Part shown: positions 3,068 through 58,698 of the stretch, one piece after another
How the letters are laid out: every line of letters begins with the position of its first letter
Position numbering within the stretch: position 1 is the stretch's first letter
Origin: an uncultured Candidatus Saccharibacteria bacterium
GTDB taxonomy: Bacteria > Patescibacteriota > Doudnabacteria > UBA920
Length of the DNA stretch: 64,000 nt
Assembly: GCA_964436545.1 (NCBI GenBank)
Contig: CAYTCJ010000001.1
Span: 78,392-142,391, forward strand
Reading direction: 5' to 3'
Position numbers and translations under genes: made by a program
The notes under the pieces: model-generated
Told to the model about the DNA's origin: nothing
Databases searched by the model: none
What the model saw: the letters and a program-made list of their open reading frames with translations, nothing else

Positions 3068-4087
3068 ATGTTGGATATTATTTCTATCGGCGACGCCACC
3101 ATTGATACATTTTTGTTTATTGATGATTTGGAAATTAAAAAAATTAATGGCCAAACCAAGGCGATTTTTAATTGGGGAGATAAATTACCGGTAAAAGAAC
3201 TTTATAAAACTGTGGCGGGTAATGCCGCCAATAACGCGGTGGGGAGTGCTCGGTTGGGTTTAAAGACCGCTTATTATACCGTCTTGGCGCACGATGTCGG
3301 CGGGAGAGAAATTATTCACAAAATGAAAAAGGAAGGCGTATCGGAGCGTTATATTGTAATCGATGAAAAACACAGCACTAATGCATCGTTTGTCATTTCT
3401 CATAAAGGCGAGAGAACTATTTTGGTTTATCACCAACATAGAAAGTATAAACTACCGCCTTTAGTTCCATCGAGATGGGTATATTTAACCAGTATGGGTG
3501 AGGGGTTTGAGTCTATTTATCCCGAGTTGTGCCAGTATATAGACAGATATCAGAGTAATTTGGGTTTTAATCCCGGCACGTTTATGCTCAGAGCGGGAGT
3601 TAAGGTGAACAAAGAAATTTTAAAGCGAACTACGTTGTTATCTGTTAATGTGGAAGAAGCGCAAAGTTGGGTGGGGGAGAATAATCGAGATCCGGAAATG
3701 CTGTGTAAAAAATTGTTCAATCTAGGCCCGAAAATTATTGCCCTTACCGATGGCCGAAGAGGGGCTTATTCCTATAGCGAGCAAGGGTTTTATTATGTAC
3801 CGGAATATCCCGGACCCAGAATAGAAGCCACGGGTGCGGGTGATGGTTTTACTACCGCTTATATTGCCGGGTTATTCTATGGGTTGCCACATGCTCAAGC
3901 ACTTAAGTGGGGTCCGGTAAATGCGGGAAGTGTGGTGCAAAAAATTGGACCGCAAGCCGGTTTACTAACCAAACAGGAAATTGCATTACAATTAAAAAAA
4001 TTAAAAAAATTTGAAACCATCAACATTACCGATGCCAAGAGTAAAAAACAGGTAATGGCTATGGTGGCAAAAAAGAAAGATACATAA
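3068..4087 (+). CDS. PfkB-family carbohydrate kinase (ribokinase/phosphofructokinase-like)
   Basis: PfkB signature GAGDGFTTAYIAGL near the C-terminus; N-terminal GDATIDTF; sits in a glycolytic gene cluster. Confidence 0.7.
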   Translation: MLDIISIGDATIDTFLFIDDLEIKKINGQTKAIFNWGDKLPVKELYKTVAGNAANNAVGSARLGLKTAYYTVLAHDVGGREIIHKMKKEGVSERYIVIDEKHSTNASFVISHKGERTILVYHQHRKYKLPPLVPSRWVYLTSMGEGFESIYPELCQYIDRYQSNLGFNPGTFMLRAGVKVNKEILKRTTLLSVNVEEAQSWVGENNRDPEMLCKKLFNLGPKIIALTDGRRGAYSYSEQGFYYVPEYPGPRIEATGAGDGFTTAYIAGLFYGLPHAQALKWGPVNAGSVVQKIGPQAGLLTKQEIALQLKKLKKFETINITDAKSKKQVMAMVAKKKDT

Positions 4088-12163: not shown

Positions 12164-12655
12164 ATGAAACTCATTATTTATACCGATGGGGGAGCGCGGG
12201 GTAACCCGGGTCCGGCGGGGATTGGGGTAGTAATCACCAACGAAGCCGGAGAAATTCTTGGTAAACATCAACAATACATTGGTAAAGCTACCAACAATGT
12301 GGCGGAGTATAAGGCGCTCATCCTTGCGCTTCAGAAAGTGCAGGAAATTCTAGATATCAAATATCAAATATCAAATCAGATTCATCTCCCCCCTCCCTTA
12401 CCCTCCCCACAACAAGGGGGAGGGAATTTGAATCTGGAAATTAGAATGGATAGTGAGTTGATTGTTCGGCAGATGCAGGGGAGGTATAAAATCAAAGACC
12501 CCACACTTCAGGTTTTGGCGGGTCAGGTATTAACTTTAATTAAAAATTTTCATCTCGTGAATTTTACGCACATCCCCAGAGCGCAAAATCAGGAGGCTGA
12601 TACTTTAGTTAACTCAGCGATCGATGCTTATTTAGCGCAGGCTAATGAAGTTTAA
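12164..12655 (+). CDS. rnhA: Ribonuclease HI with about 24-aa repeat/hairpin-encoded insertion
   Basis: IYTDGGARGNPGPAGIGVVI, NNVAEYKALILAL and MDSELIVRQM motifs; insertion ILDIKYQISNQIHLPPPLPSPQQGGGNLNLE lies between conserved blocks. Confidence 0.85.
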   Translation: MKLIIYTDGGARGNPGPAGIGVVITNEAGEILGKHQQYIGKATNNVAEYKALILALQKVQEILDIKYQISNQIHLPPPLPSPQQGGGNLNLEIRMDSELIVRQMQGRYKIKDPTLQVLAGQVLTLIKNFHLVNFTHIPRAQNQEADTLVNSAIDAYLAQANEV

Positions 12656-17300: not shown

Positions 17301-18680
17301 TTGTTATCAGTTATGACTCCCATTATCTTACATTTAGATATGAATAGTTATTTTGCCTCGGTGCTTCAGCAAGACAACCGGGCTTATAGAGGCAAGGTTT
17401 TAGGTGTGTGTGAGCATTTGGGCGGAATTATTATTTCTGCCAGCAAAGAAGCAAAAAAATGGGGTATAAAAACCGGCACGCCGGTGTGGGAAGCCAAAAA
17501 ACTTTATCCCAAAATTATTTTAACTCATACTACAGCGGAAAGGTTTAGGTTTTATACTCGTCGGTTAATTAAATTGGTTTCCGACTATACCGATCAGGTG
17601 GAAGTCTATAGCATAGATGAAGTGTTTCTTGATATTACGCGGACGTGTAATATCAGCCAATCAGCTTATCAGCATACAAGCTTGTCAGCTGGAGGGGGAG
17701 TTAATCCGTTTGCGGAAGCGGTAAATATGGCTTTGGAAATTAAACACCGCATGAAGCAGGAGGTGGGGGATTATTTAACTTGCAGTATTGGCATTGCGGA
17801 AAATAAAGTTTTAGCGAAAATCGGTTCAGATTTTAAAAAGCCGGATGGCATAGTAGTGATACAAAATTCTAAATCCGAAATTCTAAATCCGAAACAAATT
17901 TTAAATTCTAAATCCCAAATCTTAAATTTGCAAAAAGAAGATTTGTATCATTGCTTAAAGCTCACAGATGTGCCGGGAATTGGGGAGAGACAAGCAAAAA
18001 ATTTACATGCTCTAGGCATTAAAACTTTAGTGGATTTAAAACATTATCCCCAAAGTCATTTAATGGCTCGTTTTGGTAGAATTACCGGACATCATTTGCA
18101 TAATTTAGGCCAATTAAATGCTTCGTGGAAAACTTTGGTTCATCAACAACAAGAAATTAAATCAATCGGTCATATGTACACTTTGCCTAAAGAGTATCGA
18201 AAGCCGGAATTTTTTGAACCCGTGTTATTTAAACTGTGCGAGATGGTGGCTAGGAGGCTGAGGCGGAAAAATTTAGAAGGGAATGTAATCCATGCTTTTT
18301 GTTATTTTGAAGACCATCAAAATTGCGGTAATAGTTTGAAGGTGGGGGATTATATAAGTGATGGGCGGGAAATTTTTAGGTATGCCTCGGATATTTTAAA
18401 AATTTTAAATTCCCCCGCCTTCGGCACCCCCTCTTTGGCCACAGAGGGGGGAGGGGGAGTTAGGAAATTTAGCATGATTGGTATTACCATATCTAATTTA
18501 AGACCAGCCACAGGGCAATTAAGTTTATTTGGGCATAAAGAAGAGAATACAGGGTTATTAAAAGCTTTAGATAAGATTAATAACAAATATGGCGAATTCA
18601 CCGTAGCTCGTGCGCCAATTTTAGCTACCGGCAAAGTTTTTCGCGACAGTGTGGGTTTTGGCAGAGTTAAAGAGCTCTAG
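17301..18680 (+). CDS. dinB: DNA polymerase IV (Y-family) with in-frame repeat and hairpin insertions
   Basis: ILHLDMNSYFASV, SIDEVFLDIT and the PGIGERQAKNLHALGIKTLVDL HhH motif; inserts NSKSEILNPKQILNSKSQILNLQ and NSPAFGTPSLATEGGGGVRKF. Confidence 0.85.
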   Translation: MLSVMTPIILHLDMNSYFASVLQQDNRAYRGKVLGVCEHLGGIIISASKEAKKWGIKTGTPVWEAKKLYPKIILTHTTAERFRFYTRRLIKLVSDYTDQVEVYSIDEVFLDITRTCNISQSAYQHTSLSAGGGVNPFAEAVNMALEIKHRMKQEVGDYLTCSIGIAENKVLAKIGSDFKKPDGIVVIQNSKSEILNPKQILNSKSQILNLQKEDLYHCLKLTDVPGIGERQAKNLHALGIKTLVDLKHYPQSHLMARFGRITGHHLHNLGQLNASWKTLVHQQQEIKSIGHMYTLPKEYRKPEFFEPVLFKLCEMVARRLRRKNLEGNVIHAFCYFEDHQNCGNSLKVGDYISDGREIFRYASDILKILNSPAFGTPSLATEGGGGVRKFSMIGITISNLRPATGQLSLFGHKEENTGLLKALDKINNKYGEFTVARAPILATGKVFRDSVGFGRVKEL

Positions 18681-42795: not shown

Positions 42796-42840
42796 AAGAA
42801 AATAAGAAAAGCGCGCCGGTGGATGGTACCGGCGCGCGGG
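42796..42840 (-). terminator. Intrinsic terminator on the minus strand (GC hairpin plus U-run)
   Basis: Minus strand reads GCGCGCCGGUACCAUCCACCGGCGCGC followed by UUUUCUUAUUUUCUU. Confidence 0.6.
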
Positions 42841-42849
42841 AAAGCTTGA

Positions 42850-43047
42850 TCACTTGCGCGGAAAGCACTCGTGATCGGCTCGCCCCGCCCACTCAACGGT
42901 GGGCGACGGTTGTTTCGGGGGTTCCGCCGGCGGTCGCACCGGCGGGCGGGGGTGCTCAAGTGAGCAACCCCCTGAAGTGGTGGGGGTGGGCAGGGCGTCG
43001 GCCGCATGGCGGTCGACCTCCGGCCCGTGAGGATCCCATTCTTGCAT
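42850..43047 (-). CDS. GC-rich small ORF (65 aa, Pro-rich) with consensus RBS; an alternative reading is a structured RNA
   Basis: AAAGGAGGATACC-ATG RBS, ORF spans a sharply GC-rich segment, and an intrinsic terminator follows immediately. Confidence 0.35.
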   Translation of the reverse strand: MQEWDPHGPEVDRHAADALPTPTTSGGCSLEHPRPPVRPPAEPPKQPSPTVEWAGRADHECFPRK

Positions 43048-45402: not shown

Positions 45403-45440
45403 AAACCCCGCCCTTTGCAAAGGGCGGGGTTTGTTTTTTA
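45403..45440 (+). terminator. Intrinsic terminator
   Basis: CCCCGCCCTTTGCAAAGGGCGGGG perfect hairpin followed by TTTGTTTTTT. Confidence 0.75.
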
Positions 45441-48378: not shown

Positions 48379-48630
48379 ACTCTTTCATTTTTTCACAATC
48401 TTTTGTTAATGTCAAAAATTTGGTATTATATGAAAAGGTTATAGGGGTTAGGTTTTAGTTGTCCATTTTTACCATAAGCTCGCAGAGCTAAGTTTATAAT
48501 TCTTTTAGCTTTGCTTGGTCTAATTCTTATAACACTTACCGGTGGGCTTGGCGGGGCAATGGTGTATGGTCCCAATGCCGACCCTTTCTTTAAACCAGTT
48601 TTTGAGTTGTTGATGCGGTAAAAGTTTTTT

Positions 48631-48663
48631 AACCCCTCCTGGAACAGGAGGGGGAGGGGGTGG
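48631..48663 (+). repeat. Hairpin element (forward copy) directly upstream of the DUF559 gene
   Basis: CCCCTCCTGGAACAGGAGGGGGAGGGGGTGG; ends 4 nt before the ATG and supplies GGAGG as RBS. Confidence 0.7.
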
Positions 48664-48667
48664 TAGA

Positions 48668-49018
48668 ATGAATTATCTTTATAACAATATTAAATTAAAA
48701 TTAGTTAGAAAGCACTTACGAAATAATTCCGGTTTGCCTGAGATTATTCTTTGGGAGCAATTAAGAGCAAGCAAGTTGGGAAAAAAATTTAGAAGACAAT
48801 ATGGTGTAGGTAAGTTTGTTCTCGATTTTTATTCTCCCCAAATTCGGTTGGGTATTGAATTAGACGGAGCTACGCATGATAACATAAAAAGTTTTGAGAA
48901 AGATATAATTAGGCAGAAATTTATTGAAAGCCAAAATATAAAAGTAATTAGATTCCAAAATAAAGATGTTTTAGAGAATTTAGAAGGGGTAATTAATGAA
49001 ATAAAAAAATATTTGTGA
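48668..49018 (+). CDS. DUF559 endonuclease-domain protein (Vsr-like fold)
   Basis: LPEIILWEQLRASKLG..FRRQYGVGKFVLDFYSPQIRLGIELDGATHD...KVIRFQNKDVLENLEGVINEI matches DUF559. Confidence 0.75.
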   Translation: MNYLYNNIKLKLVRKHLRNNSGLPEIILWEQLRASKLGKKFRRQYGVGKFVLDFYSPQIRLGIELDGATHDNIKSFEKDIIRQKFIESQNIKVIRFQNKDVLENLEGVINEIKKYL

Positions 49019-49020
49019 TA

Positions 49021-49060
49021 CCACCCCTTAGTCCCCTCCTATTTTAGGAGGGGAAAAAAG
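49021..49060 (-). repeat. Hairpin element (inverted copy) directly downstream of the DUF559 gene
   Basis: Reverse complement reads CCCCTCCTAAAATAGGAGGGGACTAAGGGGTGG, matching the upstream copy. Confidence 0.65.
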
Positions 49061-49065
49061 TATTT

Positions 49066-49139
49066 GCGGGATTCGTACAGTGGCAGTATGCGACCTTCCC
49101 AAGGTTGAGACGAGGGTTCGATTCCCTTATCCCGCTCCA
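49066..49139 (+). tRNA. tRNA-Gly (anticodon CCC)
   Basis: Manual fold: acceptor GCGGGAU/AUCCCGC, anticodon stem CGACC/GGUUG, loop UUCCCAA, T-loop TTCGATT, encoded CCA. Confidence 0.85.
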
Positions 49140-49289
49140 AAAAGTAAAACTTGATAATATAAAAAGTCATTGAAAATTATATGGGGCAATGGCGCCAATT
49201 ATCGTTGAGAATGATTTAGGAAAAATTGTATAAAGTTTGTAAAATTACTCTATTTTATGTATAATTAAGGCAATTAAAGCCTTTTTTAT

Positions 49290-50585
49290 ATGACATCAAA
49301 AAATCTAAGTCTGGAAAGCTACAAGGGTACTCGGGATTTTTATCCCGCAGATCACTTTATTCAGGACTATATTTTTAGCGTTTGGCGCAAGGTGGCTAAA
49401 AAATACGGTTACGTGGAATACAGCGCTTCCATTTTAGAAGAAACCGAGTTATACAAGGCCAAAAGTGGCGATGAAATTATCAATGAACAAACCTATTCGT
49501 TTATGGACCGCGGGGGTCGGGAAGTTACGATTCGTCCGGAAATGACTCCTACGGTGGCGAGAATGGTGGCGCAAAAGCGCAAAGAGCTATCTTTACCTCT
49601 GCGGTGGTTTAGTATTCCCAATTTGTTTCGTTACGAAAAACCTCAACGAGGCAGACTTAGAGAACATTGGCAATTAAATGTCGATATGTTTGGCGTGGAA
49701 GGCAAAGACGCCGATGTGGAAATTGTGCGCTTAGCTTACGATATGATGAAAACTTTTGGCGCCAAAGATGAACAGTTTGTGATTCATTTAAACAGCCGAA
49801 AATTTCTGAATCATTTATTAATTGACTTTTTAAGGCTAAATGAAACGGAAAAGAAAAATACCGCTAAACTTTTAGACCGAATGCGTAAATTAAGTCCCAA
49901 AGAATTTGAGGAACAGGGTGAGGCAATTTTAGGTAACGCCAGATTTAAAGTTTTGCATAAAATTATTGGCACCAACGATTTAAACGATTTACCGGAAGAA
50001 ATTCAAGCTCATGAATCGGTAGGTGAATTAAAAGCCATTATGCAAGAGTTGAACTCCTTGGGTGTTAAAAATTTGGCTTTTGATATTGGTCTTGTTCGGG
50101 GTTTTGATTATTACACCGGCACGGTGTTTGAAATGTACGACACGAGTCCTTCTAACCCCAGAGCTTTGTTTGGGGGAGGTAGGTATGACGATTTAGTGAG
50201 TATATTTGGCGTGGAAAAAGTTAGTGGCATTGGGTTTGGGTGGGGTGATGTAACGACTCGTGACTTTTTGGAAACTTACAATTTATTGCCTAAGTACAAA
50301 ACGGAAGTGGATTTATACATTTGTCATTTGGAAGGGTTTAAAACTCCCTCAGTGACGTTGGCTGACGATTTAAGAAAATTAGGCTTAAATGTGGCAGTGG
50401 ATTTAACCGATAAAAAATTACCCGCGCAAATTAAATTTGCCGACCGAGAAGGGATAGGGTTTATTTTGGTAATTGGCGATGAAGAAGTGAAAAATAATAA
50501 ATATAAACTTAAAAATTTAAACTCCGGCGAAGAGCAGACTATGTTTAAAGAGTCGGTGGTGGAATTTATTAAAGCCCAAAAATAA
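49290..50585 (+). CDS. hisS: Histidyl-tRNA synthetase
   Basis: KGTRDFYP, RPEMTP and RYEKPQRGRLREHWQ class II motifs; anticodon-binding C-terminal domain. Confidence 0.85.
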   Translation: MTSKNLSLESYKGTRDFYPADHFIQDYIFSVWRKVAKKYGYVEYSASILEETELYKAKSGDEIINEQTYSFMDRGGREVTIRPEMTPTVARMVAQKRKELSLPLRWFSIPNLFRYEKPQRGRLREHWQLNVDMFGVEGKDADVEIVRLAYDMMKTFGAKDEQFVIHLNSRKFLNHLLIDFLRLNETEKKNTAKLLDRMRKLSPKEFEEQGEAILGNARFKVLHKIIGTNDLNDLPEEIQAHESVGELKAIMQELNSLGVKNLAFDIGLVRGFDYYTGTVFEMYDTSPSNPRALFGGGRYDDLVSIFGVEKVSGIGFGWGDVTTRDFLETYNLLPKYKTEVDLYICHLEGFKTPSVTLADDLRKLGLNVAVDLTDKKLPAQIKFADREGIGFILVIGDEEVKNNKYKLKNLNSGEEQTMFKESVVEFIKAQK

Positions 50586-57339: not shown

Positions 57340-58698
57340 TTGAGAGGTTTTGGTCTATGGGTTATAATGGGTGGTATGAAACAGAACTCCCCCAGACCCC
57401 TTCTTTCGAAAAGAGGGAAGAGAGAGCTCCCTAAGGGAGAGAGAAAAAAGGTGCTGATTGCATTAAGCGGTGGAATTGACAGCGCGGTTTCGGCATATCT
57501 ACTTATCAAACAGGGCTTTGAGGTGGAAGGTGCGTTTATGAAGAATTGGACGAGCCAAGAGGGATTACTTAAAAACGAATGTCCGTGGCTTTCGGACAGG
57601 CGAGATGCCTTAAGGGTGGCCGGATTTTTAGGCATTAAACTGCATACGTTGGATTTTGAAAAGCAATACCAAAATACGGTAATGAAGTATTTTTTTTCCG
57701 AATACAAAGCCGGCCGAACCCCCAATCCGGATGTAATGTGCAATAAGGAAATTAAGTTTAAATTGTTATATAATTGGGCTCGCCATCACGGATTTGATTA
57801 TTTAGCTACGGGACATTATGCCCAAGTAGTAAGTAGTAAGTTAGTAAGTAATAAGTATGAAAAACAAAAAACTTACAACTCTACAACTTACAACTTACAA
57901 CTTTTTCGGAGTAAAGATGAATTCAAAGATCAAACTTACTTTATCTATAACATCAAAAGCGAACAATTGCCACATTTATTATTCCCAATTGGGGGGATGA
58001 AAAAAACCGCTGTGCGTGAGTTGGCGCGAAAAATAAAATTGCCCAATGCGGAAAGAAAAGAAAGTATGGGCCTCTGTTTTGTGGGTAAAATTCGGCTGAA
58101 AGATTTTTTACAACAAAAAATAAAAGCGAAGAAAGGGGAGATAGTGTTGGCTTCGGGTTTGTCATCTCGGCCTTTGAGCCGGGATCTAGAATTAAAGAAC
58201 TGGATTCCGGATAGCCTTTCGGGTGCACTCAAGGCTTCTGGAATGACAGAATTGGTTATTGGACAGCATTTTGGGCTTCATAACTACACTATTGGCCAAA
58301 GACAGGGGATACAAGTGGGCGGTAAAGGCGGGCCGTATTATGTTTTAAGTAAAGATTTAAAGCATAACCGACTTTATGTAACCAATGATCCCAATGACAA
58401 AAGGTTGTTAGTCAAAGAAGTGCAAATTCATAGTGTGAATTGGATAACTCCCCCTAACCCCCTCTTTGGAAAAGAGGGGGGAGGGAGAATTTCCCCTCTT
58501 AAAATAAGAGGGGATAAAGGGGTGATATTACTTGGTAGATATCGTCATCAGGGGGAGCTGGTGCCACTTACAGTATCTCAAATAAACCAAGATTTATATA
58601 AAATAATTTTTAAAACTCCACAAAAAGCTGTTGCCAGTGGGCAAAGTTTGGTATTATATAAAGGTAAGGAATGTGTGGGAGGGGGAGTAATTGGGTAA
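57340..58698 (+). CDS. mnmA: tRNA-specific 2-thiouridylase MnmA with three in-frame repeat/hairpin insertions
   Basis: PP-loop LIALSGGIDSAV, catalytic CNKEIKF and GLCFVG; insertions at 57387-57445, 57826-57903 and 58448-58524. Confidence 0.85.
   Translation: MRGFGLWVIMGGMKQNSPRPLLSKRGKRELPKGERKKVLIALSGGIDSAVSAYLLIKQGFEVEGAFMKNWTSQEGLLKNECPWLSDRRDALRVAGFLGIKLHTLDFEKQYQNTVMKYFFSEYKAGRTPNPDVMCNKEIKFKLLYNWARHHGFDYLATGHYAQVVSSKLVSNKYEKQKTYNSTTYNLQLFRSKDEFKDQTYFIYNIKSEQLPHLLFPIGGMKKTAVRELARKIKLPNAERKESMGLCFVGKIRLKDFLQQKIKAKKGEIVLASGLSSRPLSRDLELKNWIPDSLSGALKASGMTELVIGQHFGLHNYTIGQRQGIQVGGKGGPYYVLSKDLKHNRLYVTNDPNDKRLLVKEVQIHSVNWITPPNPLFGKEGGGRISPLKIRGDKGVILLGRYRHQGELVPLTVSQINQDLYKIIFKTPQKAVASGQSLVLYKGKECVGGGVIG

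Follow-up and report, generated by a model that had tools for sequence, protein, structure and literature searches.

The DUF559 cassette and its flanking elements

Within the 64-kb window analysed here (the whole stretch of 64,000 nucleotides taken from contig CAYTCJ010000001.1 of assembly GCA_964436545.1, an uncultured Candidatus Saccharibacteria bacterium that GTDB places in the Doudnabacteria), a small nuclease gene of the DUF559 family lies between two mutually inverted copies of a short structured repeat, with a tRNA-Gly(CCC) gene (49066-49139, plus strand) as neighbour outside the element. The DUF559 open reading frame (ORF; 48668-49018, plus strand) encodes a 116-residue protein with a Vsr-type PD-(D/E)XK nuclease fold (PF04480, E=1.3e-25); it begins 3 nt after the left element and ends 1 nt before the right one. 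A first-pass annotation of this DNA, made from the sequence alone, had described a pair of ~33-nt inverted elements bracketing the 116-residue ORF. This arrangement is confirmed, with coordinates off by at most 1-2 nt; the right element has its end at 49054 (49059 with the adjoining A-run) and not at 49060. From the outer edge of one element to that of the other, the cassette spans 48633-49054, or 422 nt.

The left element (48633-48664, plus strand) consists of a hairpin, CCCCTCCTG-GAA-CAGGAGGGG (48633-48653), followed by GA and then GGGGGTGGT (48656-48664), and three bases (AGA) separate its end at 48664 from the DUF559 ATG at 48668. The right element (49020-49054, minus strand) opens one base past the stop codon with ACCACCCC (49020-49027) and continues with TTAG and the hairpin TCCCCTCCTA-TTT-TAGGAGGGGA (49032-49054). 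An outer A/T flank, TTTTTTAA (48625-48632, plus strand), carries a T-run (48625-48630) that complements the A-run AAAAAA at the other end (49054-49059, plus strand) and lengthens the inverted repeat (inverted pair I1; 27 nt, 81% complementary). The pattern CCCCTCCT N3-9 AGGAGGGG occurs twice in the window, against 0.00 times in 100 dinucleotide-preserving shuffles. A GGAGG at 48653-48657, 10 nt ahead of the DUF559 ATG, could serve as a ribosome-binding site.

The first-pass annotation had called each copy a G/C-rich hairpin element. The hairpin is present, but each copy is really a three-block mirror motif of the class that forms intrastrand triplexes. All copies in the window share one design, in which a pyrimidine arm (Y), a loop and a complementary purine arm (R) are followed by a short loop and a third block (R') that equals R reversed except that an A of R is answered by T or A. 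The blocks read, for example, CCCCTCC / GGAGGGG / GGGGTGG and, on the minus strand at 12390-12423, CCTCCCC / GGGGAGG / GGAGGGG. In the left motif the blocks are Y CCCCTCC(TG), loop GAA, R (CA)GGAGGGG, loop GA(G) and R' GGGG(G)TGGT, forming seven triads without mismatch under the mirror rule (DNA hairpin -10.2 kcal/mol, z -3.0). The right motif, read on the minus strand, runs TCCCCTC(CT), loop, (AG)GAGGGGA, CTA, AGGGGTGGT, also with seven triads and no mismatch (hairpin -9.9 kcal/mol, z -2.9). R' adjoins the gene in both copies, and the ORF fills the gap between the two R' blocks exactly. Since both copies aim R' at the gene, each DNA strand has a foldable motif 5' of the gene.

Intramolecular purine-motif DNA triplexes, built from G.GC and T.AT triads, classically have this order of Y, loop, R, loop and a GT-rich strand. 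Because R' mirrors R, a single DNA strand can fold into a Y:R hairpin with R' lying in its major groove; Watson-Crick folding alone predicts the Y:R hairpin and leaves R' single-stranded. From this design we infer that the window motifs may form triplexes. A scan of the window requiring seven triads and no mismatch returned seven full three-block motifs (starting at 18428, 48632, 58459 and 58492 on the plus strand and at 12390, 49021 and 58447 on the minus strand), against none in 50 block-shuffled windows. A third block that copies R directly was considered and rejected, as the window scan for it yielded one-mismatch hits only.

The mirror rule was further evaluated on 141 hairpins near DUF559 genes, picked blind to the third block, which was then sought within 45 nt. 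A perfect third block was found in mirror orientation for 61 hairpins and in direct orientation for 4, and the mirror scored above the direct copy in 93 and below it in 8. When tails were swapped among the same hairpins, perfect mirror matches averaged 19.7, with a maximum of 30 in 500 trials. Opposite an A of R, the third-block base was T in 166 cases and A in 49. The third block also changes along with R from locus to locus (AAGGAGGGGG with GGGGGTGGTT, AGGGGGAGA with AGAGGGGGT, AAGGGGAGG with GGTGGGGTA, AAGGGGGGG with GGGGGGGTT), and runs of triads reach 10, as in AAGGAGGGGG followed by GGGGGTGGTT. In 15 cassettes whose two motifs differ, the R' blocks show 6 mismatches in total to their own R and 50 to the R of the partner motif. 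These motifs had been pre-selected for the mirror rule, so the 141-hairpin comparison is the fair test of that rule. Each R' fits its own R, so that what is conserved is folding inside the individual element rather than pairing of the flanks across the gene. An RNA panhandle, with GGGGTGGT pairing with ACCACCCC across the gene, was accordingly rejected as the conserved feature on the same count of 6 versus 50 mismatches. Many motifs elsewhere (L002, L004, L005, L036, L048, L055 and L163-L165 in our numbering of loci) hold a small extra G/C hairpin between R and R', for example tggcgcgtagcgcc; the window copies have no such nested hairpin in the second loop. An Rfam scan of 48400-49300 at E<=10 matched the tRNA only, with no RNA family over the repeats.

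The DUF559 protein matches PF04480 at 89.8 bits (cut-off 20.6) over profile positions 4-107 of 109. In Pfam it matched only DUF559 and related restriction-endonuclease-fold models, with no transposase family, and the NCBIfam YcjD model was matched below its cut-off. Across 28 homologues, K40, F41, R42, R43, Q44, D53, E64, D66, H70 and D79 are invariant; by analogy with the fold family, D53, E64, D66, H70 and D79 would form the catalytic core. The closest solved structure is PDB 3HRL (E=9e-11), a structural-genomics entry titled 'Endonuclease-Like Protein', and the nearest homologues come from Candidatus Doudnabacteria. The family is large, with 17,979 clusters at 50% identity (E<=0.001) or 4,976 (E<=1e-10), and most members are stand-alone proteins of ~115-170 residues. 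Surveys of the PD-(D/E)XK superfamily give DUF559/YcjD only as predicted nucleases, and PADLOC returned weak partial hits to restriction-type domains only, with no defence system assigned. Gene callers often run DUF559 ORFs into the repeats (proteins P0016, P0046, P0054, P0061 and P0069, and many family entries), which adds artefactual ends at the N or C terminus (...EGGGSL, LPPPAPSL and HPSLLRRG, for example); this extension may be the source of many members of 150-190 residues.

Triplex-motif repeats and DUF559 genes across phyla

Repeats of this general kind, known as BoxC, PIT or triplex motifs (TM), have been catalogued since the 1990s. Holder et al. surveyed 5,246 prokaryotic genomes and plasmids for intrastrand triplex motifs, including TM_ECO, the earlier PIT elements, which are related to BoxC repeats (PMC4666352, published 2015). 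TM_ECO has the consensus CCCTCNCCC N3-6 GGGNGAGGG N3 GGGNGAGGG, is always intergenic and occurs in 3,610 copies in 262 proteobacterial genomes; it forms a triplex in vitro by circular dichroism and nuclear magnetic resonance, and inverted pairs occur (PMC4666352). Salmonella is reported by these authors to lack TM_ECO. The class is associated with local sequence variability or genome instability, with no function reported; the same authors found no transposase or integrase remnants and no mobility gene near the motifs, and the words endonuclease and Vsr are absent from their text (PMC4666352).

The three-block layout of the window repeats matches this class, and they are therefore new members of it with another block sequence. 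All seven window motifs follow the rule Y-loop-R-loop-R' with G.GC and T.AT or A.AT triads. The cassette motifs, with 7-8 triads and loops of 3 nt and 2-4 nt, fall within the ITxF definition (6-15 triads, loops of 1-6 nt), the 3-nt hairpin loop holding at maximal stem; relatives with a nested G/C hairpin in the second loop exceed its loop limit. As in PIT, TM_ECO and BoxC, the layout is that of a class II purine motif (C-rich arm, 3-9 nt loop, G-rich arm, short loop, mirrored G/T-rich arm), and the copies are multiple, dispersed, single or in inverted pairs, and tied to local rearrangement. Motif density in the window is 0.11 per kb (7 motifs in 64 kb), compared to 0.022 per kb in 80 unselected loci of the candidate phyla radiation (CPR). 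The window motifs are not TM_ECO proper: their blocks are CCCCTCC/GGAGGGG/GGGGTGG rather than CCCTCNCCC/GGGNGAGGG/GGGTGAGGG, their host is Patescibacteria/Doudnabacteria-like rather than a proteobacterium, and some copies occupy in-frame positions within genes, unlike TM_ECO, for which only intergenic copies are reported. Nor does the earlier description mention a link to a DUF559 gene (PMC4666352).

Four of the seven window motifs sit in frame inside protein-coding genes. One lies in an RNase H gene (12390-12423, minus strand), where it splits the Pfam match, and a second in the DinB (Pol IV) gene (18428-18460, plus strand). A cluster in MnmA (58447-58525) comprises one hairpin with a third block on both sides (58447-58489, both strands) and a plus-strand motif (58492-58525). 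The orphan copies that the first-pass annotation had reported inside other genes are thus real and dispersed. They are translated as Pro/Leu/Gly-rich inserts (PPPLPSPQQGGG in RNase H, TPSLATEGGGGV in DinB and TPPNPLFGKEGGGRISPLKIRGDKGVI in MnmA), with Pfam matches split or stretched, and three tandem ATATCAA heptamers (~12354-12374) adjoin the RNase H orphan within the same inserted stretch. Rickettsia palindromic elements are similarly short structured repeats tolerated in frame in conserved protein genes, although their sequence and structure are unrelated; we know of no nuclease associated with them either.

The association between motif and gene extends well beyond the window. We sampled 80 DUF559 loci from GTDB species representatives, covering Patescibacteria, Nitrospirota, Acidobacteriota, Bacteroidota, Cyanobacteria, Planctomycetota, several proteobacterial classes and others. 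The same nucleotides flank the gene across phyla, for example in an Ignavibacteria locus (L006) with ccccctccttaccaaggagggggtagggggtggtt upstream and accaccccctgccccctccttggtaaggaggggg directly past the stop codon. A hairpin scan blind to the third block detected a C/T-armed G/C hairpin within 120 nt upstream of the gene at 54 of 77 loci (70%) and downstream at 47 of 77 (61%), compared to 0.7% of 1,142 control segments from the same loci. Under a loose definition, the full motif was found within 150 nt of the gene at 59 of 76 loci, and on both sides at 29. In the flanks, loose motifs reach 3.9 per kb, ~38-fold the 0.10 per kb seen beyond 500 nt from the gene, and strict motifs give the same 38-fold ratio (1.84 versus 0.048 per kb). 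Distant family members (33-40% identity) from Neisseria, Picosynechococcus, Deinococcus and Sphingomonas also carry the motif. It accompanies a plasmid copy of DUF559 in Picosynechococcus and is degenerate, ~100 nt upstream, in the Neisseria gonorrhoeae homologue of PDB 3HRL. On the Sphingomonas plasmid NZ_CP155755.1 (67228-67623; L169), a motif-flanked DUF559 gene lies between the gene for the NAD(P) transhydrogenase alpha subunit and that for the next subunit, which looks like an insertion into an operon. In Deinococcus proteolyticus pDEIPR03 (L168) the motifs point outward, with R' away from the gene, and the inverted repeat runs ~15 nt further (GGGCCAGCGTTGCTG / CAGCAACGCTGGCCC). No paper joining DUF559 to triplex repeats was found in the searchable literature, subscription-only literature lying outside that scope.

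In E. coli K-12, the stop codon of ycjD falls within a degenerate hairpin, and number 9 of the TM copies listed by Holder et al. stands 168 nt downstream on the same strand. A partial copy of the ycjD 3' end occurs ~50 nt downstream of the gene, followed by a degenerate motif and then TM number 9 (K-12 1351204-1351760; L162). The genome has one ycjD gene and 23 motifs, and four of its five gene-less motif doublets face inward with 16-27-nt spacers, the geometry of the cassette without the gene. YcjD and N. gonorrhoeae NGO0050 (PDB 3HRL) thus share with the window protein both the DUF559 family and a triplex motif, intact or degenerate, within ~100-170 nt; their flanking motifs are single or degenerate, in contrast to the tight inverted pair of the window.

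The distribution of gene and repeats within the species offers a natural experiment. The ycjD region is present in 3,377 of 5,426 complete E. coli genomes, and among 60 genomes sampled, near-exact motif places number 3-6 in ycjD-positive and mostly 1 in ycjD-negative genomes. Strains 042, UMN026, IAI39 and SMS-3-5 we take to belong to groups D and F. They carry 6-15 TM_ECO copies, while A, B1 and C strains carry 18-30 (except UMNK88, with 13) and B2 strains 0-2 (PMC4666352). In phylogroups A, B1 and C, as well as in sequence types (ST) 69 and 182, ycjD is located between sapF and fabI; in B2 it is replaced, and assemblies carrying the eefRABCD operon, including ST11 (group E), have that operon at the ycjD site (PMC12817139, published 2026). 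Groups other than B2 that lack ycjD have 6-15 motifs. The trend fits repeats that depend on the gene, without being clean.

Unit-like behaviour of the cassette and the PEPC / tRNA-Gly locus

Several comparisons indicate that gene and repeats behave as one unit. Two loci of a single Isosphaeraceae genome (L014 and L015) have 732 nt in common at 90% identity, the shared stretch reaching from -191 to +150 relative to the gene and no further. Two further loci from Geobacter and Desulfuromonadaceae (L044 and L050) have 594 nt in common at 95%, in differing surroundings. Such duplicated units take in the repeats and sometimes extend 70-190 nt past them. The Doudnabacteria homologues (66-68% identity) occupy three different neighbourhoods, L163 and L165 lying between Rpe and transketolase genes and L164 beside dnaX, with the same architecture and homologous loops; the left loop TGGAACA is common to these homologues and the window. 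The first-pass annotation had proposed a minimal selfish or mobile cassette. This idea is supported insofar as gene and repeats act as a unit, the same architecture recurs in many phyla, and homology between loci is limited to the gene and its repeat-bearing flanks; that support does not extend to a classical transposon or homing endonuclease, the family being near-absent in phages and rare on plasmids.

Relatives of the window locus were located through HisRS. In six of them (L084, L085, L086, L088, L104 and L117), PEPC is kept next to tRNA-Gly but DUF559 is absent within ~4 kb, so that the comparison of orthologous loci proposed in the first-pass annotation does find the cassette missing. 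A conserved promoter-like block ending GGTATTATA (...AAAATTTGGTATTATA) at 48380-48430 (plus strand) aligns locally to positions 2701-2751 of L084, where it ends 21 nt ahead of tRNA-Gly; in the window ~635 nt lie between the two, cassette included. Part of this DNA, outside the cassette, is a 36-codon ORF (48511-48621, plus strand) that represents the 3' remnant of a membrane-protein gene. The gene (~170 residues, HPIxVHFPIAL... type) is full length between PEPC and tRNA-Gly in L086 (745-1266) and L088 (2272-2817), and its reduction to a 3' remnant in the window means that the locus has been rearranged. The ~200 nt that separate the promoter block from the left motif were considered as cargo and rejected, since they are a remnant of the native gene. 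In L086 and L088 the membrane-protein stop codon is only 30-40 nt from the tRNA, with no motif there. To judge from these alignments, the additional DNA is explained by the 422-nt cassette, and the repeats arrived together with the gene. The locus is not a clean empty site in the relatives, because these are distant (~60% HisRS protein identity) and two of them have the tRNA in inverted orientation.

The same intergenic region holds further repeats in relatives. Orphan triplex motifs occur at other positions between PEPC and tRNA-Gly in L084 (2655-2695), L088 (1980-2050) and L117 (2460-2515), those of L084 and L088 directly beside the PEPC start codon, and the region looks like a hot spot for triplex repeats. 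The closest relative (L082; HisRS 77% identical) carries a DUF559 gene, 44% identical and accompanied by a motif of its own (AAAGAGGGAG then GAGGGAGTTT), situated between two ~120-nt direct repeats (2757-2875 and 3290-3410) that hold further hairpin motifs. The neighbouring tRNA, to which the first-pass annotation had attached weight, appears incidental, as a tRNA lies within 300 nt at only 2 of 81 DUF559 loci. A tRNA-targeting integrative element was rejected on the same adjacency count and for lack of an integrase at the locus.

Three other features of the window differ from the triplex motifs. A strong AAACCCCGCCCTT-TGCA-AAGGGCGGGGTTT hairpin followed by Ts (45403-45432) has the look of an ordinary terminator, and the clustered GCGCGCCGG-type hairpins at 42811-42945, set in DNA that is locally rich in G/C, are strong and also of another kind. 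Between 32001 and 34000, G+C falls to 0.30, against ~0.40 elsewhere, with a GC skew near zero.

A repeat and its candidate partner nuclease

Taken together, these observations lead us to favour, at a probability of roughly 55%, a reading of 48633-49054 as a single unit of repeats plus their cognate nuclease, resembling the REPIN/RAYT systems with an unrelated enzyme and DNA structure. Because the arrangement recurs across many bacterial phyla, the DUF559 nuclease may be the missing partner enzyme of this long-known, unexplained repeat family. DUF559 would recognise the motifs, folded or as duplex, and nick at or near them; nicking would copy, maintain or mobilise the cassette and, in trans, the orphan motifs, both solo copies and doublets. 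The relation of DUF559 to triplex-motif repeats would then parallel that of RAYT transposases to REP/REPIN repeats. Within the window, insertion of the unit would have parted the promoter of tRNA-Gly from its gene, and the cassette is probably co-transcribed with tRNA-Gly.

The parallel with REP/REPIN-RAYT has several sides. In both, a single small gene lies between inverted copies of a structured repeat that is found dispersed elsewhere in the genome too, orphan singlets and doublets are scattered on the chromosome, and the gene is chromosomal rather than phage- or plasmid-borne. Repeat abundance may also follow the gene in both, to judge on the DUF559 side from the phylogenetically confounded E. 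coli trend. The RAYT side of this comparison is as reportedly set out in the work of Nunvar in 2010, Bertels and Rainey in 2011 and Ton-Hoang in 2012. The enzymes differ, a Vsr-fold nuclease here and a HUH/Y1 (IS200/IS605 TnpA-like) transposase there, as do the repeats, a hairpin with a mirrored third strand here and an imperfect palindrome with a conserved GTAG head there. Since its enzyme is not a HUH transposase, the window unit is not a member of the REPIN-RAYT group, though it may work alike. Insertion sequences (IS) and miniature inverted-repeat transposable elements (MITEs) also present terminal inverted repeats around a single gene, and the gene-less inverted doublets are MITE-like; the cassette differs in having no known transposase family, no target-site duplication and no near-identical copy set in the window. 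Membership of IS or MITEs was rejected, inverted repeats being present without a direct duplication at the ends or a transposase hit.

A number of observations weigh against the favoured reading. Some concern mobility: no target-site duplication, a feature that the first-pass annotation had suggested looking for, is found at the ends of the cassette, where the T-run and A-run merely lengthen the inverted repeat, and the further DUF559 copies it had also thought worth seeking are missing from the 64-kb window, which holds a single one. DUF559 is carried by 1 of 50,697 phage records and by 33 of 72,556 plasmid records, most of the latter being large secondary replicons or entries of chromosome size classed as plasmids. 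The gene is kept at an orthologous locus in several lineages (L009/L045/L019 and L031/L063), which indicates that descent is often vertical. Others concern the tie between gene and motif: 17 of 76 loci are without a motif, and R' faces the gene at ~2:1, a preference rather than a rule, Deinococcus and E. coli being oriented otherwise. The two motifs of one cassette can differ in subtype, and the sequences of the orphan window motifs are not those of the cassette pair. Motif subtype and protein clade go together only weakly (48.5% versus 45.3% identity, in a confounded comparison), which favours recognition of shape over exact sequence, or else frequent replacement of the flanks. The E. coli trend is confounded by phylogeny, and O157 strains lack ycjD while carrying 11 TM_ECO copies (PMC4666352, PMC12817139). 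Dimethyl sulphate footprinting in vivo failed to detect the triplex (Holder et al., PMC4666352). Finally, action of a DUF559 nuclease on the motif is pure inference.

Some of these same facts would suit a host caretaker, in which the motifs spread by another route and endanger replication, and DUF559 is a structure-specific repair nuclease resolving them, its gene standing among motifs for autoregulation or being retained by motif-rich lineages. The tie of the motif class to local genome instability (PMC4666352), a chromosomal and often vertically inherited gene, and a weak association between motif subtype and protein clade that suggests recognition of structure over sequence are all compatible with such a role, and the E. 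coli trend fits it equally well. A caretaker leaves unexplained why the gene is packed within 1-3 nt between inverted copies, why the repeats travel with it to new loci, and why the exact position is motif-free at the empty orthologous sites, and we regard this account as unlikely.

The repeats might instead act purely in cis, insulating, stabilising or throttling the expression of a potentially toxic nuclease at the RNA or DNA level, with an upstream copy that overlaps the ribosome-binding site and orphans that are unrelated to the protein. In the window and the Doudnabacteria homologues, R' or the R/R' junction does provide a GGAGG 7-10 nt before the start codon, the hairpins are stable, and the cassette lies inside a tRNA transcription unit, so that the hairpins must let transcription through. 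Neither the downstream copy nor the in-gene orphans can serve translation initiation, though, and in many phyla the upstream motif is 20-90 nt from the start codon. The motif class is also dispersed by the dozen without any gene, and a plain RNA hairpin would have no use for a mirrored third block. To our knowledge, purine-motif triplexes are a feature of DNA rather than RNA. Purely regulatory repeats are, on this balance, a rather improbable explanation.

Homing is a more specific possibility. DUF559 would cut an intact inverted doublet and copy itself in by repair, the repeats being the two halves of its target site. I-Bth0305I (PDB 3R3P), a Vsr-like homing endonuclease, belongs to a family grouped with DUF559 in a PD-(D/E)XK survey. 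Such enzymes and free-standing homing genes share with the cassette a related fold, a minimal selfish-looking gene and a patchy presence at orthologous loci, and the ORF occupies the space between the R' blocks exactly. Gene-less alleles would be expected to keep the intact site: inward doublets with 16-27-nt spacers do occur in E. coli, but the L086 and L088 sites, from relatives at ~60% protein identity, are motif-free where the cassette sits. The repeats also move with the gene, duplicated units including them and sometimes 70-190 nt beyond. Residence typical of a homing gene (phage, intron or intein) was rejected, with 1 carrier in 50,697 phage records and a gene that is free-standing and intergenic. 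Homing thus appears very unlikely to explain the cassette. That the elements are ordinary intergenic hairpins, terminators of the upstream gene and of DUF559 that are alike by chance or composition, is already contradicted and can practically be discarded: both are G/C-rich stem-loops in intergenic DNA and a stop codon stands beside one, but neither is followed by a T-run (tails GAGGGGG and AAAAAA) or called by the terminator scan, so that the conserved ordinary terminators which the first-pass annotation had allowed for as an explanation are not seen, the paired pattern is missing from shuffles, the same three-block sequence surrounds DUF559 in many phyla, copies lie inside coding regions, and earlier work cited by Holder et al. 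found the motif class to be without terminator or promoter activity (PMC4666352).

The partnership proposed for the window cassette may extend to the family as a whole. We suggest tentatively, and at somewhat less than even odds, that DUF559 proteins are the cognate enzymes of bacterial triplex-motif repeats (BoxC, PIT and TM, with relatives in cyanobacteria, CPR and others), and that a class of selfish element not recognised before has its autonomous form in motif-DUF559-motif cassettes and its non-autonomous progeny in solo motifs and inward doublets, including those inside genes. Such an element would have ends that fold into purine-motif DNA triple helices and a Vsr-fold nuclease as its sole gene. 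The BoxC, PIT and TM repeats are so far without an assigned function, mode of spread or partner protein, and DUF559 is a large uncharacterised nuclease family with members in E. coli (YcjD), in Neisseria and in nearly every phylum. If true, this proposal would give both a testable function, that of a nuclease reading a triple helix or its precursor hairpin, for which E. coli K-12, with one ycjD gene and 23 motifs, is a direct test system. Such a nuclease, if specific for triplexes, would be of use as a reagent as well. The pairing would represent a second partnership between a repeat and a resident enzyme beside REPIN-RAYT, and one that is mechanistically unrelated to it.

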